From NCBI GenBank assembly GCA_041583775.1, contig JBFHFF010000004.1:66428-130427 (forward strand): 64,000 nucleotides of DNA, written 5' to 3'. Position numbers and translations under genes: made by a program. The stretch is from Candidatus Moraniibacteriota bacterium (GTDB taxonomy: Bacteria > Patescibacteriota > Minisyncoccia > Moranbacterales > DUUL01). The notes under the pieces were generated by a model. That model did not search any database and was not told the origin of the DNA. It was given only the letters and a program-made list of their open reading frames with translations. Shown here one piece after another: positions 2,836-55,935 of the stretch (its first letter is position 1; each line of letters begins with the position of its first letter).

Positions 2836-3390
2836 CTATTTTTTAAAAGGAGTTTTAAAATCCTTAAAGTTCTGTAAATTATTGTCCTTTTCTGAAGTTA
2901 TCGGATTTCTATCAAGTGGCCACTCAATAGCTAGTATTGGATCATTCCAAACAATTCCACTATCCGATTCTGGAGCATATAAATTATCAACTTTGTAAAC
3001 AAATTCTGTGTTTTCCTCTAATGTGCAAAAAGCGTGAGCAAATCCCCTTGGAATATATAACATTTTCTTATTTTTTGCAGAAAGTTCAAATCCCTCCCAT
3101 TGTCCAAATGTGGCAGAGTCTTCCCTTAAATCTACAATAACATCATAGACACTGCCCGCAACAACTCTAACGAGTTTTGATTGAGCATTAGGTGGAAGTT
3201 GAAAGTGCAACCCTCTCAAAACCCCCTTCTCAACTGAGAGCGAATGGTTGTCTTGAACAAAATCATCTTTGATTCCATTTTTTGCAAATAGCTCTTTTGA
3301 ATATGATTCTAAAAAGAAGCCTCTGTGATCTTCAAATACCTTTGGCTCAATTAAAAAAGCACCTTCAAATTTTGTTTTGATAAAATTCAT
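2836..3390 (-). CDS. rmlC: dTDP-4-dehydrorhamnose 3,5-epimerase
   Basis: Cupin-type RmlC sequence (FEDHRGFF...), 184 aa. Confidence 0.85.
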   Translation of the reverse strand: MNFIKTKFEGAFLIEPKVFEDHRGFFLESYSKELFAKNGIKDDFVQDNHSLSVEKGVLRGLHFQLPPNAQSKLVRVVAGSVYDVIVDLREDSATFGQWEGFELSAKNKKMLYIPRGFAHAFCTLEENTEFVYKVDNLYAPESDSGIVWNDPILAIEWPLDRNPITSEKDNNLQNFKDFKTPFKK

Positions 3391-3477
3391 TATCTATTTA
3401 TTTTTAAAGTTAATTAAAAGCAAAATAATTTTAGCACGCGAAATTATTTTTTAAAAGCTTTGATAAAATATAATAAA

Positions 3478-3508
3478 AATGCCTCAGTTTAAAACTGAGG
3501 CATTTTTA
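3478..3508. terminator. bidirectional intrinsic terminator
   Basis: 12-bp perfect stem aatgcctcagtt/aactgaggcatt with a 3-nt loop (taa), A-run before and T-run after. Confidence 0.65.
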
Positions 3509-3520
3509 TTATATTAAATT

Positions 3521-4909
3521 CTATTCTTCTTTGCTAATCTCCCAGTCTTCCCTCAATTCAACTTCATATCCTGAGCCCTTACCTTCCTTATCTATAATTT
3601 TAATCTTACCTGCGACTGAAGCAATCCCTGATTGCTTTTGAATAAGAATTTTGTAGTCTTCAAAAGTTACATTCTCAGGTAAATCATATGCAAATGAAAT
3701 CGTTTTAATCGTTCCAACGGGAACATTTACAATTCCACCAAAGAATTTCTTACCTCCCTCGGTTCCATACTTAATCTGAGAAATATTCTCGGAACTCGCC
3801 AACCAACTGTTATTTGGCACAAAAATTCTCAAATAAGAGCTGTAGTCCTTAATATACCAATTTCTTTGCCTTCCTGTATGACTATAGACAATATCCAATG
3901 TTGCTCGTGGCTTTTCTTGAGAAAAATCAATTGTATAATCAAAAGTTCGCTTCATTACTTGATCAGTCTTATATGAAGCCAAATTTGCATCAACCATCAT
4001 TAAAAAATCTTGTTGTGCATCTTTTAGTTTTCCGTCCCAACCAAGTGTTTTAATTTTTTCCTGAAGTTCGACATCCTTGAAATAAACCATCACATCCTTT
4101 TCATTTAAATGCTTCTCCGCCTTTTCCAATAGCATTCTCTTGTCAGAAAGACTCATTTTTTCAGCTTTTTTTAAAATTGCTTTTGCCAAATCTTTCATTA
4201 TATATTTTCTTTCACCCTCGGATATACCTTGCTCTACATAACCTTTTTCGACTTGATATTGAAGTTTTTCAATAGCATTTTCAGCATTATATTCCCCTGA
4301 AAAACCAGGAATCGTTACGGGTCCTGTAATTTCCAAAAATGAAGGTAGCAACTTTGTAGAGATAGCAACTACACCATCAAGGCTCTCCGCCCCACCCTCA
4401 AGACGATACAATTCTTCTGCTTTTTCTGCGTTTACCATAAAATCTGGTGACCAATTTGAATCTCTTAATTCCCAATCAGAAACTCCTAAAAGAGCTTCCA
4501 TTGGAAATGGTGGTGTAACTTTTGTATCAACCCCAGAATCAAATACATTTGTATCATGAGTATCTATTGCAATAACACTCTCCCCCTTAATCTTTAAAAT
4601 ACCAAAAGAACCTATGTATCCGCCCCCGGGACGCAATTCGTTGTTGTTTTGAAATAAAATCAAAAAAGTTTTTTCTTTATTTGTTGCTATTTCCGGAACT
4701 ATACTAAAAATCGTAGTTAGTTCTTCTTTTCTTTCATCGTCAATTGGCAAAACCTTAACAACTGAATTTGCAACCTTACTAATTGATACAAATTTGTTGT
4801 TATTTGTTATTTGCAAAAAAAAGTACCAACCAGTTAAAAATAGAATCGCAACAATCCAAAATTTCAATAGAAATTTATTTTGACGACTTTTTTTATCCAT
4901 ATCCAACAT
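3521..4909 (-). CDS. membrane-anchored protein, DUF4012-like
   Basis: N-terminal TM helix and a PGGGYIGSFG motif region; family assignment from memory only. Confidence 0.45.
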   Translation of the reverse strand: MLDMDKKSRQNKFLLKFWIVAILFLTGWYFFLQITNNNKFVSISKVANSVVKVLPIDDERKEELTTIFSIVPEIATNKEKTFLILFQNNNELRPGGGYIGSFGILKIKGESVIAIDTHDTNVFDSGVDTKVTPPFPMEALLGVSDWELRDSNWSPDFMVNAEKAEELYRLEGGAESLDGVVAISTKLLPSFLEITGPVTIPGFSGEYNAENAIEKLQYQVEKGYVEQGISEGERKYIMKDLAKAILKKAEKMSLSDKRMLLEKAEKHLNEKDVMVYFKDVELQEKIKTLGWDGKLKDAQQDFLMMVDANLASYKTDQVMKRTFDYTIDFSQEKPRATLDIVYSHTGRQRNWYIKDYSSYLRIFVPNNSWLASSENISQIKYGTEGGKKFFGGIVNVPVGTIKTISFAYDLPENVTFEDYKILIQKQSGIASVAGKIKIIDKEGKGSGYEVELREDWEISKEE

Positions 4910-22655: not shown

Positions 22656-22740
22656 AATAAACTGAGACTGTTTATTTTTTGTTTTTGTGTTTTTATTTCA
22701 GCTATAAAGATAACTAGCACTTGTCTAGACTTTTTCTTTG

Positions 22741-22814
22741 TAGCGGCGAGAGGAGTTGAACCTCTGACCTCGGGCTTATGAGTCCCACGCTCTAACCAAC
22801 TGAGCTACGCCGCC
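22741..22814 (-). tRNA. tRNA-Met (CAT), elongator or Ile2/lysidine type
   Basis: Cloverleaf by eye; anticodon loop CTCATAA; G1-U72. Confidence 0.7.
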
Positions 22815-22915
22815 AATTTGTTATTTTACATAAAAAAATCAATCTTCTACAAACAATTTTCAACTTATATATGAGATTGAAAACTGAGCATCGAAAATTG
22901 AAAATCAAAATTTTG

Positions 22916-22989
22916 TTGCGGGGACCGGATTCGAACCGATGACCTACTGGTTATGAGCCAGTCGAGCTACCAGACTGCTCCACCCCGCG
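22916..22989 (-). tRNA. initiator tRNA-fMet (CAT)
   Basis: CGCGGGGTGGAGCAG...CCCCGCAA, very similar to E. coli tRNAfMet and with the diagnostic C1/A72 mismatch. Confidence 0.8.
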
Positions 22990-25037: not shown

Positions 25038-25955
25038 ATGATAAATGAGATCAAGGGAGAAAAAATGAGTTGGATTGATATCCAGAATCCAACCTCTAAA
25101 GACATTTTATATCTTAAGAATAACTTCAATTTAGATACTCTCGTTCTCGATGAATTCACTTCCCCATCACAACGACCGCGTGCACAAGAGTTTGATAATT
25201 GCCTCTACCTAGTAATGCACATTCCCATTTTTGACCGCTTAAAAAGGGTCACTTCCCCCGGAGAACTTGACATTGTAATCACAAAAGATCATCTCATAAC
25301 TTCTCACATTGGCGATAATCTTCCGTTAAAATCGATTGTAAAAGAATTTACTGAAAATGAGATTGCCAAAAAGAATTCGATGTCTGATACAACAGGGTTA
25401 CTTTTATACTTTATCTTAGAAAAACTCTTAGATTCTTGTTTCCCTAAAATCGATCACATTAATGAACAATTAAATGAAATTGAAAAACAAATTTTCAACG
25501 GAAATGAAAGGGGAATGGTCAAAGAAACATCTCTTGTCAAAAGAGATATTCTGGCCTTCAGAAGAACTCTAAAACCTCAAAGGAGCATTCTCGAATCACT
25601 CGTTCAAAAACATTATGTGCTTTTGGATGAGAATTTGAATAAATATTTTCAGGAACTTATCGGAATTAATATCAGGGTCTGGAATGCCCTTGAAAATACA
25701 AAAGAAGTGATTGAGTCCTTAGAAGAAACAAATAATGCGATGGTTTCCTATCAAATAAATGAAGCGATGCGATTTTTAACCTCCATATCCCTTATCACCT
25801 TCACCCTTTCAGTAACTGTCGGAGTTTTCGGGATGGCACCCTTTGAATCATTCTCTATAGCAAAAAATCCCATAACTTTTTGGGTGATTCTTCTCTTTAT
25901 GGCTCTTACGGCTACATTTTTGCTCATATTTTTCAAGAGAAAAAAGTGGTTGTAG
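25038..25955 (+). CDS. CorA-family divalent cation transporter with GMA in place of the GMN signature
   Basis: CorA-like soluble domain (LAFRRTLKPQRSILESL), YQINEAMRFLT, two C-terminal TM helices; FGMAPF where YGMNF is expected. Confidence 0.7.
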   Translation: MINEIKGEKMSWIDIQNPTSKDILYLKNNFNLDTLVLDEFTSPSQRPRAQEFDNCLYLVMHIPIFDRLKRVTSPGELDIVITKDHLITSHIGDNLPLKSIVKEFTENEIAKKNSMSDTTGLLLYFILEKLLDSCFPKIDHINEQLNEIEKQIFNGNERGMVKETSLVKRDILAFRRTLKPQRSILESLVQKHYVLLDENLNKYFQELIGINIRVWNALENTKEVIESLEETNNAMVSYQINEAMRFLTSISLITFTLSVTVGVFGMAPFESFSIAKNPITFWVILLFMALTATFLLIFFKRKKWL

Positions 25956-26095
25956 AATTGGTGAAAAACAAAAAATGCAAATTTTATCAATACACTGATT
26001 TTAGCTCAATATATTGAGAGAATTATTTGTAAAAATAGCTATTCTAACATAGAATCAAATAAATCAGAGTTTCAAATAGTTTCATCGTTCTCAAA

Positions 26096-27670
26096 ATGAA
26101 GATGCAAAACTCTTTTTGGAAAATTACCTGCACAACATTTAATCATTGTACCTCCATCATGTCCAACTTTTTATTGAAATCAACTTTTATTGTCCTTATC
26201 TCCGAAATTATTTATAACCTCTCTGGCTACATCATTCATGCAGCCGTGGGACGACTTTTGGGTCCTGCTGATTATGGACGCTTTGCTATCATCGTGACAC
26301 TCACTACTATGACCATAGTACTCATCGGACAAAGTATTCCAACTGCTATGTCGAAATATTTAAGCGAAGTTTTTGAAAACAAAAAAGAGCTCATTAAGAT
26401 TATTAAATGGCAAACAATTAAAATTCAAACAATTATAGTTGGTGGCGCAACTATTTTATTTTTTCTTATTTCACCGCTCATTGCGCTAGCTCTAGGCGAC
26501 TCAAGCCTTACCAACCTCTTCCGCTTGTCATCGCTTGTCATTCCAGCTTTTGCTGCCGCTTCTTTCTATTTCTATTATTATACCGGCTTGCATCGTTTCA
26601 AAATTCAAGCATTTCTCAAAACAAGCCGTGGTGTCTTAAGAATAACTTTTATTATTGGATTAGCACTTATATTAAAACCATATGGTTTGGCCATCCAGGG
26701 CGCAATTCTAGGCTATGCTGCTGCACCTTTTGTTTTGTTTTTAATTGGCTTAGGAATTGATAAGTTTAAAATCAAAAAAGAATTACAAGCCGTTTCACCA
26801 CAAAAAGACAAGGGAATGTCTTTTGATTGGAAAAAATTAACTTCTTTCGCTTGGCCAGTAACAATATTTTTAATTGCCTATCAGCTCTTAAACACTATTG
26901 ACCTCTATCTCGTGAAAGGGATTTTGCATTCCGACACACAAACAGGTGTCTATAATGCTGCTTATACCGTTGGCTCTATCCCCTACAATTTATTTTACGC
27001 ACTCACTATTATTCTCCTACCAGCAGTTTCGAAGTCAACATCCTCCAATAATAATCAAGAAACTAAGAAAATCATTAGTCAATCACTACGCTTTTTAACT
27101 ATGTTTCTTGTGCCAGTTTGCCTGCTTATGTCTTATTTTTCTTTACCGCTTGTTAATATTTTTTATTCGCATGAATTCTCCGCAGCTGCACCAGTTATGT
27201 CTATATATGTCATCGCTGAGGGCTTTCTAACTATTTTCTACATCCTAACTTTCATCTTAAATGGAGCTGGGAAAGTAAAAATTCCAATGTATGCAGCGAT
27301 TGTTGGTTTGTTACTTAATATTTTCATCACTTATTTCTTAGTTAAAATTTATGGTCTCTTGGGAGCAGCTAGTGGCACCGCTATTATGTCTTTAGTTATA
27401 ATGATTTTTGGATTAATCTACACTTACCGAGAATTCGGCTATCTTTTCCCGCTTAAAAGTTTTTTCAAAATCTCACTAGCATCTTTCTCGATGATTTCAA
27501 TGGCCTTCTTTTTTCCACGCACTGGATATCTGTTTATTGTCTATTCCGCTCTCCTTTTTGCTTTCTATATTCTTTTGCTTTGGATCTTTCAAGAACTTAA
27601 AAAAGATGATTTAGTAATTTTTAAAAACATTCTAAATAGGAAAAAACAAAAAAAGCCCTTGCATAGTTGA
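26096..27670 (+). CDS. MOP-superfamily polysaccharide flippase (Wzx-like)
   Basis: About 14 predicted TM helices, 524 aa, Wzx/MurJ-like. Confidence 0.65.
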   Translation: MKMQNSFWKITCTTFNHCTSIMSNFLLKSTFIVLISEIIYNLSGYIIHAAVGRLLGPADYGRFAIIVTLTTMTIVLIGQSIPTAMSKYLSEVFENKKELIKIIKWQTIKIQTIIVGGATILFFLISPLIALALGDSSLTNLFRLSSLVIPAFAAASFYFYYYTGLHRFKIQAFLKTSRGVLRITFIIGLALILKPYGLAIQGAILGYAAAPFVLFLIGLGIDKFKIKKELQAVSPQKDKGMSFDWKKLTSFAWPVTIFLIAYQLLNTIDLYLVKGILHSDTQTGVYNAAYTVGSIPYNLFYALTIILLPAVSKSTSSNNNQETKKIISQSLRFLTMFLVPVCLLMSYFSLPLVNIFYSHEFSAAAPVMSIYVIAEGFLTIFYILTFILNGAGKVKIPMYAAIVGLLLNIFITYFLVKIYGLLGAASGTAIMSLVIMIFGLIYTYREFGYLFPLKSFFKISLASFSMISMAFFFPRTGYLFIVYSALLFAFYILLLWIFQELKKDDLVIFKNILNRKKQKKPLHS

Positions 27671-27909
27671 TAACTGCAGGGACTTTTATGTAAATCGTTG
27701 CCAGGTTATTTTATTAACCTGATTGTCAACGGGTAGTGGCACTCTTTCCCGTTGACTGCGTTTAATATAGCAATTGTTATATAAATCACCCAATGTTTTC
27801 TCTCCCATTTTTTCCTCCTAATTGATAGGTTTTGGACTTAGTGTCCGTTTATTTCAACATTGATAATAAATTAAAGCACAATGCTGAGTTTATGTCAAGA
27901 TGTTGGGTT

Positions 27910-27938
27910 TTGACACAACCAAAAAAGTATCCTACACT
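27910..27938 (+). promoter_or_regulatory. candidate sigma70-type promoter for the T-box leader
   Basis: TTGACA-17 nt-TACACT about 280 nt upstream of cysK. Confidence 0.35.
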
Positions 27939-27944
27939 TAAATT

Positions 27945-28193
27945 GTTCTTTAATTTCACTAAAAAATCTTGACCAAGGAAGCGTGCGCCTTGTTCGTCTA
28001 TGCAAATAGACAGATTATGAGAGTAAAACCTTGAAGAATTTCAAGACAATTCTCATCGGTAGAACCCGTAACAGTTCAATGAAGGTTTTCTCTAGTATTA
28101 TTTACAAGAGAAAATGAATAAAGGTGGAACCGCGAAATTTCTCGCCCTTTTATGAAAAGTATTTTTCATAAAGGACGAGAGATTTTTTGTTTT
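27945..28193 (+). promoter_or_regulatory. T-box riboswitch-like leader upstream of cysK-cysS
   Basis: AATAAAGGTGGAACCGCG (28116-28133) matches the T-box consensus AGGGUGGNACCGCG with a UGGA bulge; strong terminator hairpin tctcgccctttt...aaaggacgagag plus a U-run (28138-28193); no ORF in this 520-nt region. Confidence 0.65.
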
Positions 28194-28220
28194 ATACCCC
28201 TCTAGTAATAACCTCTCAAA

Positions 28221-29123
28221 ATGAAAAAAACCACTGACATCACAAAACTGATTGGCAACACTCCCCTGATAAAATTGAGTTCTTTTTGTGGCGAAAACTT
28301 TGACATCTATGCTAAACTAGAAGGAGAAAACATAGGTGGTTCTATTAAAGATCGTGTCGCTCTAGCACTAATTCAAGATTTAGAAAAAAAAGGGTTGTTA
28401 GGTAATAACAAAACAATCTTCGAACCATCCTCAGGAAACACTGGAATTGGCCTCGCAATGATTGGAACAAAAAAGGGATATCCTGTAAAAATCATGCTTC
28501 CAGAAAATGCCACTCCTGAACGAATAGCTATTTTAAAGATGTTTGGAGCTGAAGTTATTTTCTGCAAAAAAGAGGAATGGAAGGGAGACACAGCCATAGA
28601 AATGGTAAAAAAAATGACTTCTGAGGATAATTCGCTAGTCATGCCAAATCAATATGAAAATGAGGCTTGCGTACAAGTACATTTCGATACGACCGGAAAA
28701 GAAATCGTTGAACAACTTCCAGACATCACTCATCTAGTGGCCACGGTTGGTACAGGTGGTACAGTTACTGGAGTTGGAAAAAGAATGAAGTATTTTAATA
28801 ACGAGATTCAGGTTGTTGGTATTGAAATAGGACAAAATTCAACAATTCCTGGTCCTAGAAATCTAGATACATTTATTCCAAAAATTCTCAATTCAAATTT
28901 TATTGATCAAAGCCTTAGAATAAAAAAAGAACCAGAAGTATATGAAATACACAAGAAACTTTGTATTTATGAGGGATTATTCTATGGAATTTCCTCAGCA
29001 GCCACTCTCTACGGAGCTTTGAAAATAGCTGAAAAAATCAAACCTTCCAGCGGAAAAAAGGCTCAAATCGTTTGCATATTCCCCGATCGTGGAGAAAAAT
29101 ATCTAAGTCAGTTCATCAAATAA
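28221..29123 (+). CDS. cysK: cysteine synthase (O-acetylserine sulfhydrylase), PLP-dependent
   Basis: GGSIKDRVA PLP-lysine motif, SSGNTGIGLA. Confidence 0.85.
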   Translation: MKKTTDITKLIGNTPLIKLSSFCGENFDIYAKLEGENIGGSIKDRVALALIQDLEKKGLLGNNKTIFEPSSGNTGIGLAMIGTKKGYPVKIMLPENATPERIAILKMFGAEVIFCKKEEWKGDTAIEMVKKMTSEDNSLVMPNQYENEACVQVHFDTTGKEIVEQLPDITHLVATVGTGGTVTGVGKRMKYFNNEIQVVGIEIGQNSTIPGPRNLDTFIPKILNSNFIDQSLRIKKEPEVYEIHKKLCIYEGLFYGISSAATLYGALKIAEKIKPSSGKKAQIVCIFPDRGEKYLSQFIK

Positions 29124-29143
29124 TCACTTTAAATAAAAAATAA

Positions 29144-30589
29144 ATGTTCAAGCTATTCAACACCCTTTCAGGAGAAAAAGAAGAATTCAAATCAATTGAA
29201 GTGGGAAAAGTCAAGATTTATACCTGCGGACCAACAGTTTATGATTATGCTCATATTGGAAATCTTTGTGCCTATATTCACGCAGATACACTAAAGCGTT
29301 CCCTGGAGTCCTTTGGCTATGAAGTGCGCCACATTGTGAATATAACTGATGTAGGACATCTAACTGCAGATGAAATAAATCAGGCGGATTCTGGTGAAGA
29401 CAAAATGTTAAAAGCGGCGTTAAGAGAAAATAAAAGCTCAGAAGAAATTGCAAACTTTTACACAGAACAATTTTTCAAAGACATTGAGATTCTGAACATT
29501 GAAAAAGCCAATTATTATCCTCGCGCCACAGCTCATATATCACAAATGATTACTATCATCAAAACTCTGATTGAAAAGGAGCTTGCATATGAAAATAATG
29601 GTAATGTTTTTTATGATGTTGAAAAATTCAAAGAATATGGAAAACTTTCCAAGAAAAAAATAGCTAATCTAAAACACGGCGCAAGACTCGAAAATCATCC
29701 AGACAAAAAACATTCTTATGATTTTGCACTTTGGTTGAAGGCACCAAAAGACCATATTTTGAAATGGGAAAGCCCTTGGTCGATTGGATATCCAGGTTGG
29801 CACATTGAATGTAGCGCAATGTCAATGGAATATCTTGGAGAGACACTAGATATTCATACTGGTGGCGAAGACCACATTTTTCCACATCATGAAAATGAAA
29901 TTGCTCAATCAGAAGGTTGTACTGGAAAACTTTTTGCAAATTTTTGGTTTCACAATAGATTTTTGCTTGTCAACTCTCAAAAAATGTCAAAGTCTAAAGG
30001 AAATTTTTATAGATTAGGGGATATTATTGAAAAAGGTTTTTCACCAATGGAGTTTAGGATGTTGGTCATAAGCTCTCATTACCGCTCCAGTTTGAATTTT
30101 ACTTGGGATGGAATGGAGCAAGCCAGAAAGAATCTTGAAAAAATTTCTCGTTTTGTTGAAAATATTAAAGAAGTAAGAGAAAATGCTAAGTCTGTAAATG
30201 ATAATGATCTGGTGGAATTAAAAAAATATGAATCGGACTTTTTTGAGGCAATAGAAGATGATTTAAATATTCCCAAGGCTTTAGGTTTTTTATTTGAATT
30301 AATGACATTAGTCAATAAAAATATTGCTGAGGATTCTTTTTCCTCAGAAAATTCAACTTCTATACTTGTTTCTTGGAACAAAATGAATAGAATTTTAGGA
30401 TTAGAGTTGGAAGAAAAAGAGCACACTAAGATTCCAGATGAAATTATCAATTTAGCTAAAAAAAGGGATGATGCTAGAAAAGGAAAAGATTTTGAAAAAG
30501 CAGATGAATTCAGAAAGCTTGTAGAGGAAAAGGGTTATCTAATTCTAGACACCCCAAATAATTTTGAAATTGTCAAAAACAAGAAATAA
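29144..30589 (+). CDS. cysS: cysteinyl-tRNA synthetase
   Basis: HIGN, PGWHIECSAM, KMSKSKGN motifs. Confidence 0.95.
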   Translation: MFKLFNTLSGEKEEFKSIEVGKVKIYTCGPTVYDYAHIGNLCAYIHADTLKRSLESFGYEVRHIVNITDVGHLTADEINQADSGEDKMLKAALRENKSSEEIANFYTEQFFKDIEILNIEKANYYPRATAHISQMITIIKTLIEKELAYENNGNVFYDVEKFKEYGKLSKKKIANLKHGARLENHPDKKHSYDFALWLKAPKDHILKWESPWSIGYPGWHIECSAMSMEYLGETLDIHTGGEDHIFPHHENEIAQSEGCTGKLFANFWFHNRFLLVNSQKMSKSKGNFYRLGDIIEKGFSPMEFRMLVISSHYRSSLNFTWDGMEQARKNLEKISRFVENIKEVRENAKSVNDNDLVELKKYESDFFEAIEDDLNIPKALGFLFELMTLVNKNIAEDSFSSENSTSILVSWNKMNRILGLELEEKEHTKIPDEIINLAKKRDDARKGKDFEKADEFRKLVEEKGYLILDTPNNFEIVKNKK

Positions 30590-30662
30590 AAAGGTGACCA
30601 GAAAGAAGATTCTTCCTTGGCCACCTCTATGGCGGACAAGCTATGTTGTTTTTCATAGCTCC

Positions 30663-30944
30663 TCACATCATAAGTGTTGCGGTTTTCTTTCCTTGAAGAG
30701 GAAAGAAAACCCAGGTTTCAAATTCGTGCTTAATCCTCTCCGCCAAAAGATTGGCTTCGACAGAATTGAATTCTTTTTTCAATCTCTCCAGATATCTGGA
30801 GAAGATGCCTGAAATCAACTGCTCCTCCTCTTGGGAGTCTAAGACCTCGCCAACAAACTGCTCGGCGACAGAAATTAGGCGCTGATCATTGAGATCAACT
30901 GTTAACTCACCCACTGCTGTAAGAATGTAAAATAATTCGGCCAT
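30663..30944 (-). CDS. small acidic helical hypothetical protein (93 aa)
   Basis: Start MAELFYIL preceded by a perfect SD AGAAGGAGGT; the upstream part of the longer six-frame ORF overlaps dusB on the other strand and is discarded. Confidence 0.55.
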   Translation of the reverse strand: MAELFYILTAVGELTVDLNDQRLISVAEQFVGEVLDSQEEEQLISGIFSRYLERLKKEFNSVEANLLAERIKHEFETWVFFPLQGKKTATLMM

Positions 30945-30960
30945 AATAATACCTCCTTCT

Positions 30961-31926
30961 ATGAAAAAAATTCCAAAATTAATTCTAGCCCCTATGGCTG
31001 GTATCAGCGATCTCCCATTTCGGATTATTTGTAAAGAACTTGGAGCTGATACTCTATATTCCGAAATGCTTTCCTCAACTGGTGTCCATTTCACACTACA
31101 GAAGAATCTTGTTTTTGTCAACTCTTGCAAACAAGATTCTCCGCTTATTGTCCAGCTTTTTGGGAACAATCCCAAATATTTTACCTCTGCAACAAAAATC
31201 ATTGACAAATTACCTAAAATTGAAGAGCTCGGAGGAAAAACTGCTCCTCGTCGACCAGAAGGAATTGATATTAACTTTGGTTGCCCCGTGAAAAAAGTAA
31301 TGAAACAAGATAGCGGTTGTGCACTTATGCGTGACCCGAAATATGCTAGGGAAATAATAAAATCAGTATTAGACAACACATCCCTTCCAGTTTCAATCAA
31401 AATTAGGGCTGGAATTGACAATGTTAACGCCTTTAATTTTCTCGAAGAAGTCGCTGACTTGAACTGGAAAACATTAATGGTTCACGGAAGAACCTATAAG
31501 GAAGGTTTTTCTGGTGAAATTGATTCTCAGATGATAAAGAAAATCAAAGAAAAATATCCTAAAAAAGAAATTATTGCTAATGGCGGTATTTTCACACCAG
31601 AAATCGCCAAGAGGGTTTTTGAAAAAACAAAAGCTGATGGACTTGGAATTGCTCGTGGTTGTCTTGGTAACCCTTGGTTATTTAAACAAATAAAAGAATA
31701 TTTCCAAACAGGAAAATATTCAAAGCCATCCTTAGAAGAAATAAAAAGAGTCGCGTTAAGACACTGCGAATTAATTGAAAAATATAAAGGGAAAGAAAAT
31801 GTTTTTGAAATGAGAAAACATTTAGGTTGGTACTTCAAAGGATTCCCAGACGCAAAAAATCTAAGAGCAAACCTTTTTGCTGTGAAAGATTTCGATGAAA
31901 TCAAGGATATTTTGGCTAAACTGTAA
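30961..31926 (+). CDS. dusB: tRNA-dihydrouridine synthase
   Basis: LAPMAGISDLPFR...GCP Dus family motifs. Confidence 0.85.
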   Translation: MKKIPKLILAPMAGISDLPFRIICKELGADTLYSEMLSSTGVHFTLQKNLVFVNSCKQDSPLIVQLFGNNPKYFTSATKIIDKLPKIEELGGKTAPRRPEGIDINFGCPVKKVMKQDSGCALMRDPKYAREIIKSVLDNTSLPVSIKIRAGIDNVNAFNFLEEVADLNWKTLMVHGRTYKEGFSGEIDSQMIKKIKEKYPKKEIIANGGIFTPEIAKRVFEKTKADGLGIARGCLGNPWLFKQIKEYFQTGKYSKPSLEEIKRVALRHCELIEKYKGKENVFEMRKHLGWYFKGFPDAKNLRANLFAVKDFDEIKDILAKL

Positions 31927-55199: not shown

Positions 55200-55682
55200 T
55201 GCATAAATATTAACTTTCCAGATACCATAGAAAAATGGAATGCTACTGCAAGGGAGTTAGCACTAAAAGAAAAAGAAGTTGAAAATTACATCGACCTGCT
55301 GGCAAAAACCGCCAGTGATGTTGTTAGAAAGAAATATGAGCTTAGAGTCGAAGCCCTTGAGGAAGAGATTTCGGCATTAAAAAAACAGCCCTCGGTTGCT
55401 AAGCACCTGAACTGTGAAGACGCTATTTCAGAAGTATTGCATTTTCTTGGAACACCTGCTGATTATTGGCAAAAAACCAATCTGGAAGGCAAATTTATGG
55501 TACACAACCTTATATTCACAGAGAATCCAATCTTTGACTTGCAAAATGGATTTGGAACACCTAAAACTTCCCTTCCCTTCGCAATAAAAGACGCCATTCA
55601 CAATGACGTCTCTTCTATGGTGGACCCTAGGGGATTCGAACTCCTGACCTCCTCAGTGCAAATGAGGCGCTCTACCAACTGA
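55200..55682 (+). pseudogene. start-less remnant of a larger gene, tentatively a recombinase C-terminal coiled-coil tail, reading into tRNA-Ala
   Basis: Open frame begins right after a TGA at 55197-55199 with no ATG; heptad-like ALKEKEVENYIDLL...ELRVEALEEEISALKK; runs antisense across the tRNA-Ala 3' end. Confidence 0.3.
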
Positions 55683-55693
55683 GCTAAGGGCCC
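55618..55693 (-). tRNA. tRNA-Ala (TGC) with encoded CCA
   Basis: Cloverleaf by eye; anticodon loop TTTGCAC; G3-U70 alanine identity pair; 3' ...AGGGTCC-A-CCA. Confidence 0.85.
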
Positions 55694-55858: not shown

Positions 55859-55935
55859 CTGTGGGCAATCCAGGAATTGAACCTGGGACCTCGTCATTAT
55901 CAGTGACGCGCTCTAACCATCTGAGCTAATCGCCC
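55859..55935 (-). tRNA. tRNA-Ile (GAT)
   Basis: Cloverleaf by eye; anticodon loop CTGATAA. Confidence 0.8.

Follow-up and report, generated by a model that had tools for sequence, protein, structure and literature searches.

Leader RNAs of the T-box type sense tRNA, and the described forms differ in the length of Stem I, the arm in which the tRNA anticodon meets a specifier codon. T-boxes with a long Stem I act on transcription and need a platform that binds the tRNA elbow for fast capture of their ligand; those with a short Stem I and no elbow platform, mostly located upstream of actinobacterial ileS, act on translation and tolerate slower binding (PMC7583486). The same relation between Stem I length and T-box type is given in PMC11297988, and a K-turn is probably needed wherever Stem II is present (PMC7583486). 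Here, we analyze a leader upstream of the cysteine genes cysK and cysS in a 64,000-nucleotide (nt) stretch of a Candidatus Moraniibacteriota bacterium (GTDB lineage Bacteria; Patescibacteriota; Minisyncoccia; Moranbacterales; DUUL01; NCBI GenBank assembly GCA_041583775.1, contig JBFHFF010000004.1, positions 66,428 to 130,427 of the forward strand), the whole of which is referred to as the window and supplies the coordinates used below. We consider it quite probable that this leader is a T-box attenuator which senses the charging of tRNA-Cys, controls cysK-cysS, and carries a Stem I folded into a three-way junction. Its discriminator and terminator half appears to be that of class I T-boxes, and its decoding half is predicted to be class II-like, except that it takes the form of a three-way junction and lacks a K-turn. 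Our comparison with known classes draws on two reviews, PMC7583486 and PMC7778990, together with PMC11297988.

Detection, conservation, and covariation of the leader

The first-pass annotation of the window, made by a model from the sequence alone, had proposed a tRNA-sensing T-box in front of cysK-cysS and considered it notable for a lineage with reduced genomes. This proposal is borne out by a match to the Rfam T-box family RF00230, by the same element in 12 relatives, and by covariation of the T-box helices. RF00230 aligned over its full model (positions 1 to 219) to positions 27960 to 28152 with 48.6 bits (E = 1.4e-9 when 701 nt were searched, E = 1.3e-7 when the whole window was scanned against all 4227 Rfam families), a significant match that nonetheless lies below the gathering score of 93. 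At the gathering threshold, the window returned seven tRNAs and no T-box, so that in the strict terms of the first-pass annotation there is no hit above threshold; the permissive whole-window scan returned no second T-box. In the RF00230 alignment, Stem II, IIA, Stem III, and the T-box/antiterminator align well, whereas Stem I occupies 41 nt as opposed to 88 in the model. We attribute the low score to this noncanonical Stem I of about half the model length and not to the absence of a T-box. All 12 relatives tested likewise match RF00230 below threshold (28.8 to 51.7 bits). Since such scores fall under the Rfam gathering score, standard annotation pipelines would miss the element and leave it unreported.

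A genome scan with the CysK sequence led to locus L001, from a Candidatus Moraniibacteriota metagenome-assembled genome whose CysK is 87% identical and which carries the same leader (47.4 bits against RF00230). A protein search returned a graded series of CysK proteins with 50 to 87% identity, the named ones being labeled "Patescibacteria group bacterium," and the loci of 11 other leaders were recovered by looking up the contigs that encode exactly these proteins. The resulting set comprises 13 distinct leaders (the window, L001, L003, L004, L086, L087, L089 to L094, and L096), the 12 outside the window all belonging to Patescibacteria with CysK 53 to 87% identical to that of the window. Every one of the 13 precedes a conserved cysK-cysS(-dusB) block, mostly downstream of corA. 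By contrast, neither the T-box sequence nor hairpin A of Stem I (described below) was found in any of 80 distant CysK loci from other lineages (L006 to L085, at most 44% identity), which had been collected by a metagenome scan with a CysK alignment and very generic peptide patterns, and the element therefore appears to be specific to one clade.

The 13 leaders were aligned with MAFFT (alignment A2; mean column identity 44%). Without any structure as input, RNAalifold recovered the Stem I base helix P1, hairpins A and B inside P1, the base of Stem II, IIA, Stem III, and an antiterminator made of a 6-pair helix, the 7-nt bulge UGGAACC, and a 4-pair helix, with compensatory changes in 28 of its 44 pairs. 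The IIA/B pseudoknot was added before pairs were counted (47 pairs), and as controls the partners of all pairs were slid by 1 to 3 columns or the columns were shuffled 500 times. Standard pairs were formed by 92.0% of cells (38.6 to 49.1% after sliding), 31 of the 47 pairs changed on both sides (11 to 18 after sliding), and the covariation score reached 0.468 (at most 0.134 after sliding); none of the 500 column shuffles equaled the observed value on any of five measures. Pairs with double changes are spread over P1 (4/4), hairpin B (7/7), the Stem II base (5/6), the pseudoknot (4/4), and Stem III (6/6). Judging from this pattern of substitution, the helices that define a T-box are under selection, and we regard it as very likely that the leader is a functional attenuator of the T-box type. 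The features of the leader and of the two genes behind it are collected in Table 1.

Table 1 Predicted features of the cysK-cysS leader and downstream genes, in window coordinates (MFE, minimum free energy)
Feature	Positions	Strand	Description and basis
Sigma-70-type promoter	27910-27938	+	TTGACA 27910-27915, 17-nt spacer, TACACT 27933-27938
P1, 5' strand	27965-27969	+	AAUCU, Stem I base helix; pairs with 28012-28016; MFE fold of isolated Stem I
Hairpin A	27971-27995	+	Putative specifier arm; core stem C27974-G27978 / C27988-G27992; 9-nt apical loop AAGCGUGCG at 27979-27987
Putative specifier	27984-27987	+	UGC (Cys codon), then purine G27987; invariant in 13/13 leaders
Hairpin B	27996-28011	+	GUCUAU-GCAA-AUAGAC, variable junction arm; covariation, MFE fold
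P1, 3' strand	28012-28016	+	AGAUU; MFE fold, RNAalifold, covariation
Stem II	28017-28056	+	Base helix 28017-28024/28049-28056; distal hairpin 28030-28045; RF00230 aligns to its Stem II
Stem IIA/B pseudoknot	28057-28077	+	IIA C28057-G28059 with C28066-G28068; IIB G28062-C28065 with G28074-C28077
Stem III	28085-28115	+	-11.2 kcal/mol, z = -4.15; double changes in 6/6 pairs
Antiterminator	28120-28150	+	A1 28120-28124 with 28146-28150; A2 28132-28135 with 28142-28145
Intrinsic terminator	28135-28188	+	Stem 28135-28185; U6 run 28183-28188, then G and four U
cysK	28221-29123	+	CysK/CysM-family cysteine synthase, 300 amino acids (aa); first gene under the putative control
cysS	29144-30589	+	Cysteine-tRNA ligase, 481 aa; second gene under the putative control, 20 nt past the cysK stop

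Antiterminator, terminator, and promoter

The near-consensus T-box sequence on which the first-pass annotation was built (AAAGGUGGAACCGCG / AAAGGTGGAACCGCG) lies at 28120 to 28134, and the motif GGTGGNACCRYG occurs only once in the 64-kb window. The 7-nt bulge UGGAACC (28125 to 28131, with UGGA at 28125 to 28128) is invariant in all 13 leaders, in keeping with the earlier argument that it implies a tRNA with U73 as its discriminator base, and the helices on its two sides, A1 and A2, are paired in 93.6% and 94.2% of cases across the alignment. The terminator proved to be as strong as initially described, with a predicted energy of -20.2 to -21.1 kcal/mol (z = -5.8; shuffled sequences -6.9 ± 2.3, none of 200 as stable), and it escaped a simple terminator scan because its stem contains internal mismatches. 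Its 5' arm takes in the 3' strands of both A1 and A2 (28142 to 28150), which makes the two folds mutually exclusive, and in the window an antiterminator of about -5 kcal/mol competes with a terminator of about -21 kcal/mol.

The same arrangement recurs in all 13 leaders, in which the 3' strand of the antiterminator is shared with a stronger, G+C-rich terminator hairpin followed by a run of five to eight U. Terminators range from -20 to -56 kcal/mol and antiterminators from -4 to -8 kcal/mol, the exception being that of L092, which a loop insertion brings to -25.8 kcal/mol. The distance from the end of the terminator to the cysK start codon is 18 to 63 nt, with 207 nt in L087 (2029 to 2295) and 420 nt in L092 (1765 to 2080) as exceptions. 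On the strength of these predicted folds, the expression platform is transcription termination and not sequestration of a Shine-Dalgarno sequence. The insertion in the antiterminator loop of L092 is a hairpin of about 60 nt, and gene callers place an 85-aa minus-strand open reading frame (ORF) in the spacer.

Upstream of the leader, the TTGACA/TACACT promoter named in the first-pass annotation matches at 10 of 12 positions and is the sole promoter-like site within 27400 to 28400, from which transcription would start near 27945. A promoter of the form TTGAC(A/T)-16/17-TAnnnT lies 27 to 51 nt 5' of hairpin A in 12 of the 13 leaders, the window included; the exception, L091, has TTGACA-17-CATAAT farther upstream. 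Just 3' of the -10 element, around the expected start, a motif (U)GUUCUUU is present in the window (27945 to 27952) and in L001, L003, L004, and L086.

Stem I as a probable three-way junction with a putative apical specifier

When folded in isolation, positions 27960 to 28020 adopt a three-way junction as their MFE structure, in agreement with RNAalifold on the alignment, and the linkers between the arms measure 0 to 2 nt. P1 covaries freely among the leaders (alignment helix 8-11/97-100, with AAUC/GAUU, AACC/GGUU, AGCC/GGCU, AGUC/GACU, CAGCA/UGCUG, and CUCCG/CGGAG), and hairpin B varies from 13 to about 70 nt with neither sequence nor loop conserved. Hairpin A behaves differently: its 19-nt core, CAAGG-AAGCGUGCG-CCUUG, is identical in 11 of the 13 leaders and differs by a single substitution in each of the others (C to U within the loop of L004, U to C within the stem of L094), giving an overall loop of AAG(C/U)GUGCG, while the outer pairs G27971-C27995 and A27972-U27994 covary (AU/GU/GC/UG).

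In known T-boxes, the specifier is a codon that strongly favors C as its last base and is followed by a conserved purine and then a helix (PMC7583486). The first-pass annotation had been unable to place a Cys codon in Stem I and offered AUG-A and GGU-U as candidates. We found UGC at 27984 to 27986 in the apical loop of hairpin A; AUG(C)A falls into the variable hairpin B, and GGU-U does not lie at a conserved unpaired position. With G27987 behind it, UGC obeys both the third-position C rule and the 3'-purine rule, albeit in an apical loop and not in an internal Specifier Loop. The discriminator base helps to choose among the triplets of this loop. U73 is an identity element of tRNA-Cys in every domain of life and is also present in bacterial tRNA-Gly, position 73 being A in the tRNAs for Lys, Ala, and Val and G in that for Ser. 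On this ground AAG (Lys), GCG (Ala), and GUG (Val), all requiring A73, and AGC (Ser), requiring G73, do not fit the UGGA bulge, and CGU (Arg) turns into UGU in L004; A73 is also the discriminator base of the tRNAs that the window itself encodes for Lys (CUU), Ala (UGC), Arg, Ile, and Met. UGC is the sole loop triplet compatible with the invariant bulge. Because UGGA demands U73, because the only GGN triplet is buried in the stem, and because both downstream genes are cysteine genes, we propose UGC as the specifier and tRNA-Cys as the ligand. The fit of the bulge to either Cys or Gly, between which the first-pass annotation had left the choice undecided, still stands, and it is UGC-G in the hairpin A loop that would settle it in favor of Cys. 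We hold this specific model of Stem I, a three-way junction with UGC in hairpin A, to be likely on the basis of the alignment and the predicted folds.

Other hallmarks of a canonical Stem I are lacking. No conserved K-turn (GA motif) was found at the base of Stem I in the 13 leaders, where P1 is joined to hairpin A by differing residues (UGAC, AUAA, AAAA, AAGA, CUAG, CAU, and G) and no linker is present on the 3' side to supply the partner GA. Nor was a distal double-T-loop platform (IDTM) for the tRNA elbow found, for which the half-length Stem I offers no room; the sole candidate for a platform arm is hairpin B, which has 16 nt and a GCAA loop in the window and is variable elsewhere.

Stem II, pseudoknot, and Stem III

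Directly downstream, Stem II has a predicted energy of -11.2 kcal/mol (z = -4.2) and in the window a purine-rich internal loop, AAAAC / ACA. In L089 (2290 to 2328), Stem II is reduced to a minimal hairpin, GCGGAAA-GAUAA-UUUCUGC, from which the distal hairpin is missing and in which GAUAA has become the terminal loop; this suggests that the GAUAA purine motif may be the functional part of Stem II. The pseudoknot that follows includes an F-box-like CCGUAA, and its helix IIA (CGG/CCG) is invariant while IIB covaries (GAAC/GUUC in the window; UUGC/GCAA, UCGC/GCGA, and AGC/GCU elsewhere).

Proposed mechanism and alternative explanations

We propose the following sequence of events. Starting from the promoter, the nascent leader would fold into the three-way-junction Stem I (P1, hairpins A and B), with Stem II, the IIA/B pseudoknot, and Stem III coming immediately after it. 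On the apical loop of hairpin A, UGC would pair with the GCA anticodon of tRNA-Cys, and the internal loop of Stem II together with the pseudoknot is assumed to buttress this short duplex, as in the actinobacterial T-boxes with a short Stem I. Hairpin B may stack on P1 and set the angle of hairpin A, in which case the three-way junction would do geometrically what a K-turn does elsewhere; the missing contact with the tRNA elbow may be made up for by Stem II and the pseudoknot. The 3' UCCA of uncharged tRNA-Cys would then pair with UGGA at 28125 to 28128 and stabilize the antiterminator, allowing readthrough into cysK-cysS; charged tRNA-Cys would be unable to do so, and the terminator would form. 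The comparison shows the sequence elements, the covarying helices and pseudoknot, the mutually exclusive terminator and antiterminator, and their conservation within a clade of Patescibacteria. From these we infer that tRNA is bound, which triplet is the specifier, what hairpin B and Stem II contribute, and in which direction the operon is regulated, and the downstream steps (GCA with UGC, UCCA with UGGA, and readthrough) are proposed because they belong to the established T-box mechanism.

Several observations weigh against this model. The RF00230 score amounts to about half of the gathering score, and the literature demands a long Stem I with an elbow motif for transcriptional T-boxes and probably a K-turn wherever there is a Stem II (PMC7583486). 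The internal loop of Stem II, AUAAAA/ACAA in its conserved form, occupies the position of the RF00230 S-turn and differs from the GAA/AGUA consensus. The stem of hairpin A is without direct covariation support, its five core pairs being unvarying and only the two flanking pairs covarying; extra contacts with the tRNA or with Stem II, or a bound protein, could account for this invariance. A tRNA-Cys gene was not found in the window or in 60 fetched loci, and its GCA anticodon and U73 are presumed for the lineage. Finally, a sister T-box of the same architecture with another codon, which would confirm the position of the specifier, was found neither in the window nor in the fetched loci or viral contigs: no hairpin A with a different triplet at the UGC position occurred in the fetched loci, and the same search of viral contigs gave 83 matches with scattered triplets and no T-box downstream, about as many as expected by chance.

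How the leader identifies its tRNA could be read in other ways. It might be an ordinary class I T-box whose specifier lies elsewhere in Stem I, either at AUG-A or GGU-U or at UGC-A (28002 to 28005) in hairpin B, and indeed hairpin B reads UAUGCAAAU in the window and UAUGUAGAU in L001, so that it displays UGC-A and UGU-A, two Cys codons followed by A. The other 11, deeper-branching leaders, however, carry unrelated hairpin B loops (AAUA, UUCC, UUAAA, UUCG, and others) with no conserved triplet, and because the Cys-like triplet is absent from these deeper relatives, we do not take it for the specifier. As the loop of hairpin B closes to a GCAA tetraloop in the window, and no single-stranded internal loop beside the 3' strand of P1 is available with linkers of 0 to 2 nt, a specifier elsewhere in Stem I seems very improbable to us. 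We are equally skeptical of a T-box that senses tRNA-Gly. The UGGA bulge would suit the U73 of bacterial tRNA-Gly just as well, and GGA-A (27977 to 27980) is present at the boundary between stem and loop of hairpin A; yet G27977 and G27978 are paired in a stem whose flanking pairs covary, the unpaired loop offers no GGN, GGA violates the rule of C at the third position, and in each of the 13 loci the two regulated genes are specific to cysteine.

A different role for hairpin A altogether, as a palindrome (CAAGG-N9-CCTTG) that mainly serves as a protein site, would explain why both of its arms are invariant when the other helices of the leader covary, as is typical where a protein recognizes a specific sequence. 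Such a site could act in DNA, as the operator of a cysteine regulator, or in RNA, bound by an RNA-binding protein, with the T-box core either cooperating with hairpin A or persisting as a relic that attenuates without codon-anticodon recognition. Against it, the 9-nt center varies as little as the arms do, an unusual feature in the operator of a dimer, the loop holds precisely the codon and purine expected, and no regulator gene is conserved beside the locus among the relatives; moreover, the bulge, the pseudoknot, and Stems II and III, which are under selection, make sense only with a tRNA ligand, and a T-box needs a specifier. We therefore consider a protein site unlikely, if somewhat less so than the alternatives above. 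Chance resemblance, or a plain terminator without any sensing, might be invoked from the subthreshold RF00230 score and from an antiterminator that on its own is no more stable than shuffled sequence (z = -0.44), but the E value over the whole window and the compensatory changes across 13 lineages speak against it, and a weak antiterminator is the normal state of a T-box, so that we give this explanation almost no credence.

Comparison with known T-box classes

Class I T-boxes (RF00230, such as Bacillus subtilis tyrS and glyQS and the cysteine T-boxes of Firmicutes) share with this leader the 7-nt UGGN-ACC bulge and A1/A2 antiterminator, the competing intrinsic terminator with its U-run, a purine-flanked Stem III, a Stem II ahead of the IIA/B pseudoknot with its F-box-like CCGUAA, and a specifier that ends in C, precedes a purine, and corresponds to the amino acid handled by the regulated synthetase and biosynthesis genes. 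The first-pass annotation had described the layout as the standard one of Firmicutes, which does not hold for Stem I: in the leader it has about half the model's length (41 nt against 88) and forms a three-way junction, the codon is displayed by an apical loop of the 5' arm where class I uses an internal loop of the 3' side, and there is neither a conserved K-turn nor a distal double-T-loop platform. The host, too, belongs to Patescibacteria, within the Candidate Phyla Radiation (CPR), and not to Firmicutes, and the score of 48.6 bits stands against a gathering score of 93.

The decoding half is closer to class II, exemplified by ileS of Mycobacterium tuberculosis and Nocardia farcinica, a likeness that we judged by the published description of this class. 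In both, a short hairpin close to the 5' end carries the specifier in its apical loop, an elbow platform is lacking, and Stem II and the IIA/B pseudoknot lie directly downstream, where they probably compensate. In contrast to class II, the leader ends in a terminator with a U-run and not in a sequestrator of the ribosome binding site, has no visible K-turn, and has the variable hairpin B inserted after the specifier hairpin and ahead of the 3' strand of P1, an insertion that creates the three-way junction; its specificity would be for Cys and not Ile, its Stem II loop departs from the S-turn consensus, and it belongs to another phylum. The primary description of the ultrashort Stem I is reportedly that of Sherwood et al. 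2015, and the short-Stem-I model of TBDB has been searched only in Actinobacteria.

Since the leader fails at least one defining feature of each class, we file it as a new architectural variant that is neither class I nor class II. Our literature search found no T-box for the CPR, Patescibacteria, Parcubacteria, or Saccharibacteria and no three-way-junction Stem I in a T-box, within a limited coverage that is no proof of either being unreported. Whether these leaders constitute a third architectural class, transcriptional, without a K-turn, with an apical specifier on a three-way-junction Stem I and no elbow contact, and at the same time the first T-box described in the CPR, is in our judgment an even call.

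The cysK-cysS locus and neighboring features

The product of cysK matches TIGR01136 with E = 4.7e-85, under the curated cutoff, and its homologues carry the database name "cysteine synthase family protein"; the product of cysS matches TIGR00435 with 461 bits (cutoff 340). The gene order shared by the clade is relA/spoT-like, yidD, corA, T-box, cysK, cysS, a small minus-strand ORF, and dusB (25038 to 31926 in the window; also in L003, L004, and L086 to L096), to which the window adds a gene for a MurJ/SpoVB-like flippase (26096 to 27670) between corA and the T-box.

The leader had been described as 520 nt long and free of ORFs, but the gap of about 550 nt before cysK contains a minus-strand gene remnant (27688 to 27808), and the true leader extends from about 27945 to the ATG at 28221, about 276 nt. 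The remnant is an ORF of 40 codons with a perfect AGGAGG Shine-Dalgarno sequence, and its intact counterpart in L001 is a gene for a membrane protein of 146 aa (3154 to 3594, minus strand). It begins with MGEKTL, compared to MKEKTL in L001, and the end, ...CHYPLTIRLIK*, is retained in another frame; because both start and end of the L001 gene persist, the latter in a different frame, we interpret the ORF as the product of an internal deletion. Between the flippase gene and this remnant, a G+C-rich hairpin at 27651 to 27690 (GCCCUUGCA...UGCAGGGAC), which has runs of A and of U at its sides and overlaps the flippase stop codon, could be a bidirectional terminator.

Elsewhere in the window, tRNA-Ala(UGC) (55618 to 55693, minus strand) adjoins tRNA-Ile(GAU) (55861 to 55935, minus strand) in an order like that of a 16S-23S spacer, and no rRNA was detected by Rfam anywhere in the 64 kb, permissive thresholds included. 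Two tRNA-Met(CAT) genes lie about 100 nt apart at 22740 to 22989 (minus strand), and such a pair is also located upstream of yidD/corA in L093 (93 to 462, minus strand), where CysK is only 55% identical.

Conclusions

If the leaders are functional as proposed, tRNA can be sensed cotranscriptionally without the platform of a long Stem I, and Stem II can be held in position by a three-way junction where other T-boxes use a K-turn. With a short Stem I and an apical specifier, yet a classical intrinsic terminator, they offer a natural test case for the generalizations made about platform and K-turn. To our knowledge, almost no gene regulation has been described for CPR bacteria. The leaders analyzed here suggest that at least one clade of these ultrasmall bacteria may keep its cysteine synthase and cysteinyl-tRNA synthetase under the control of tRNA charging.

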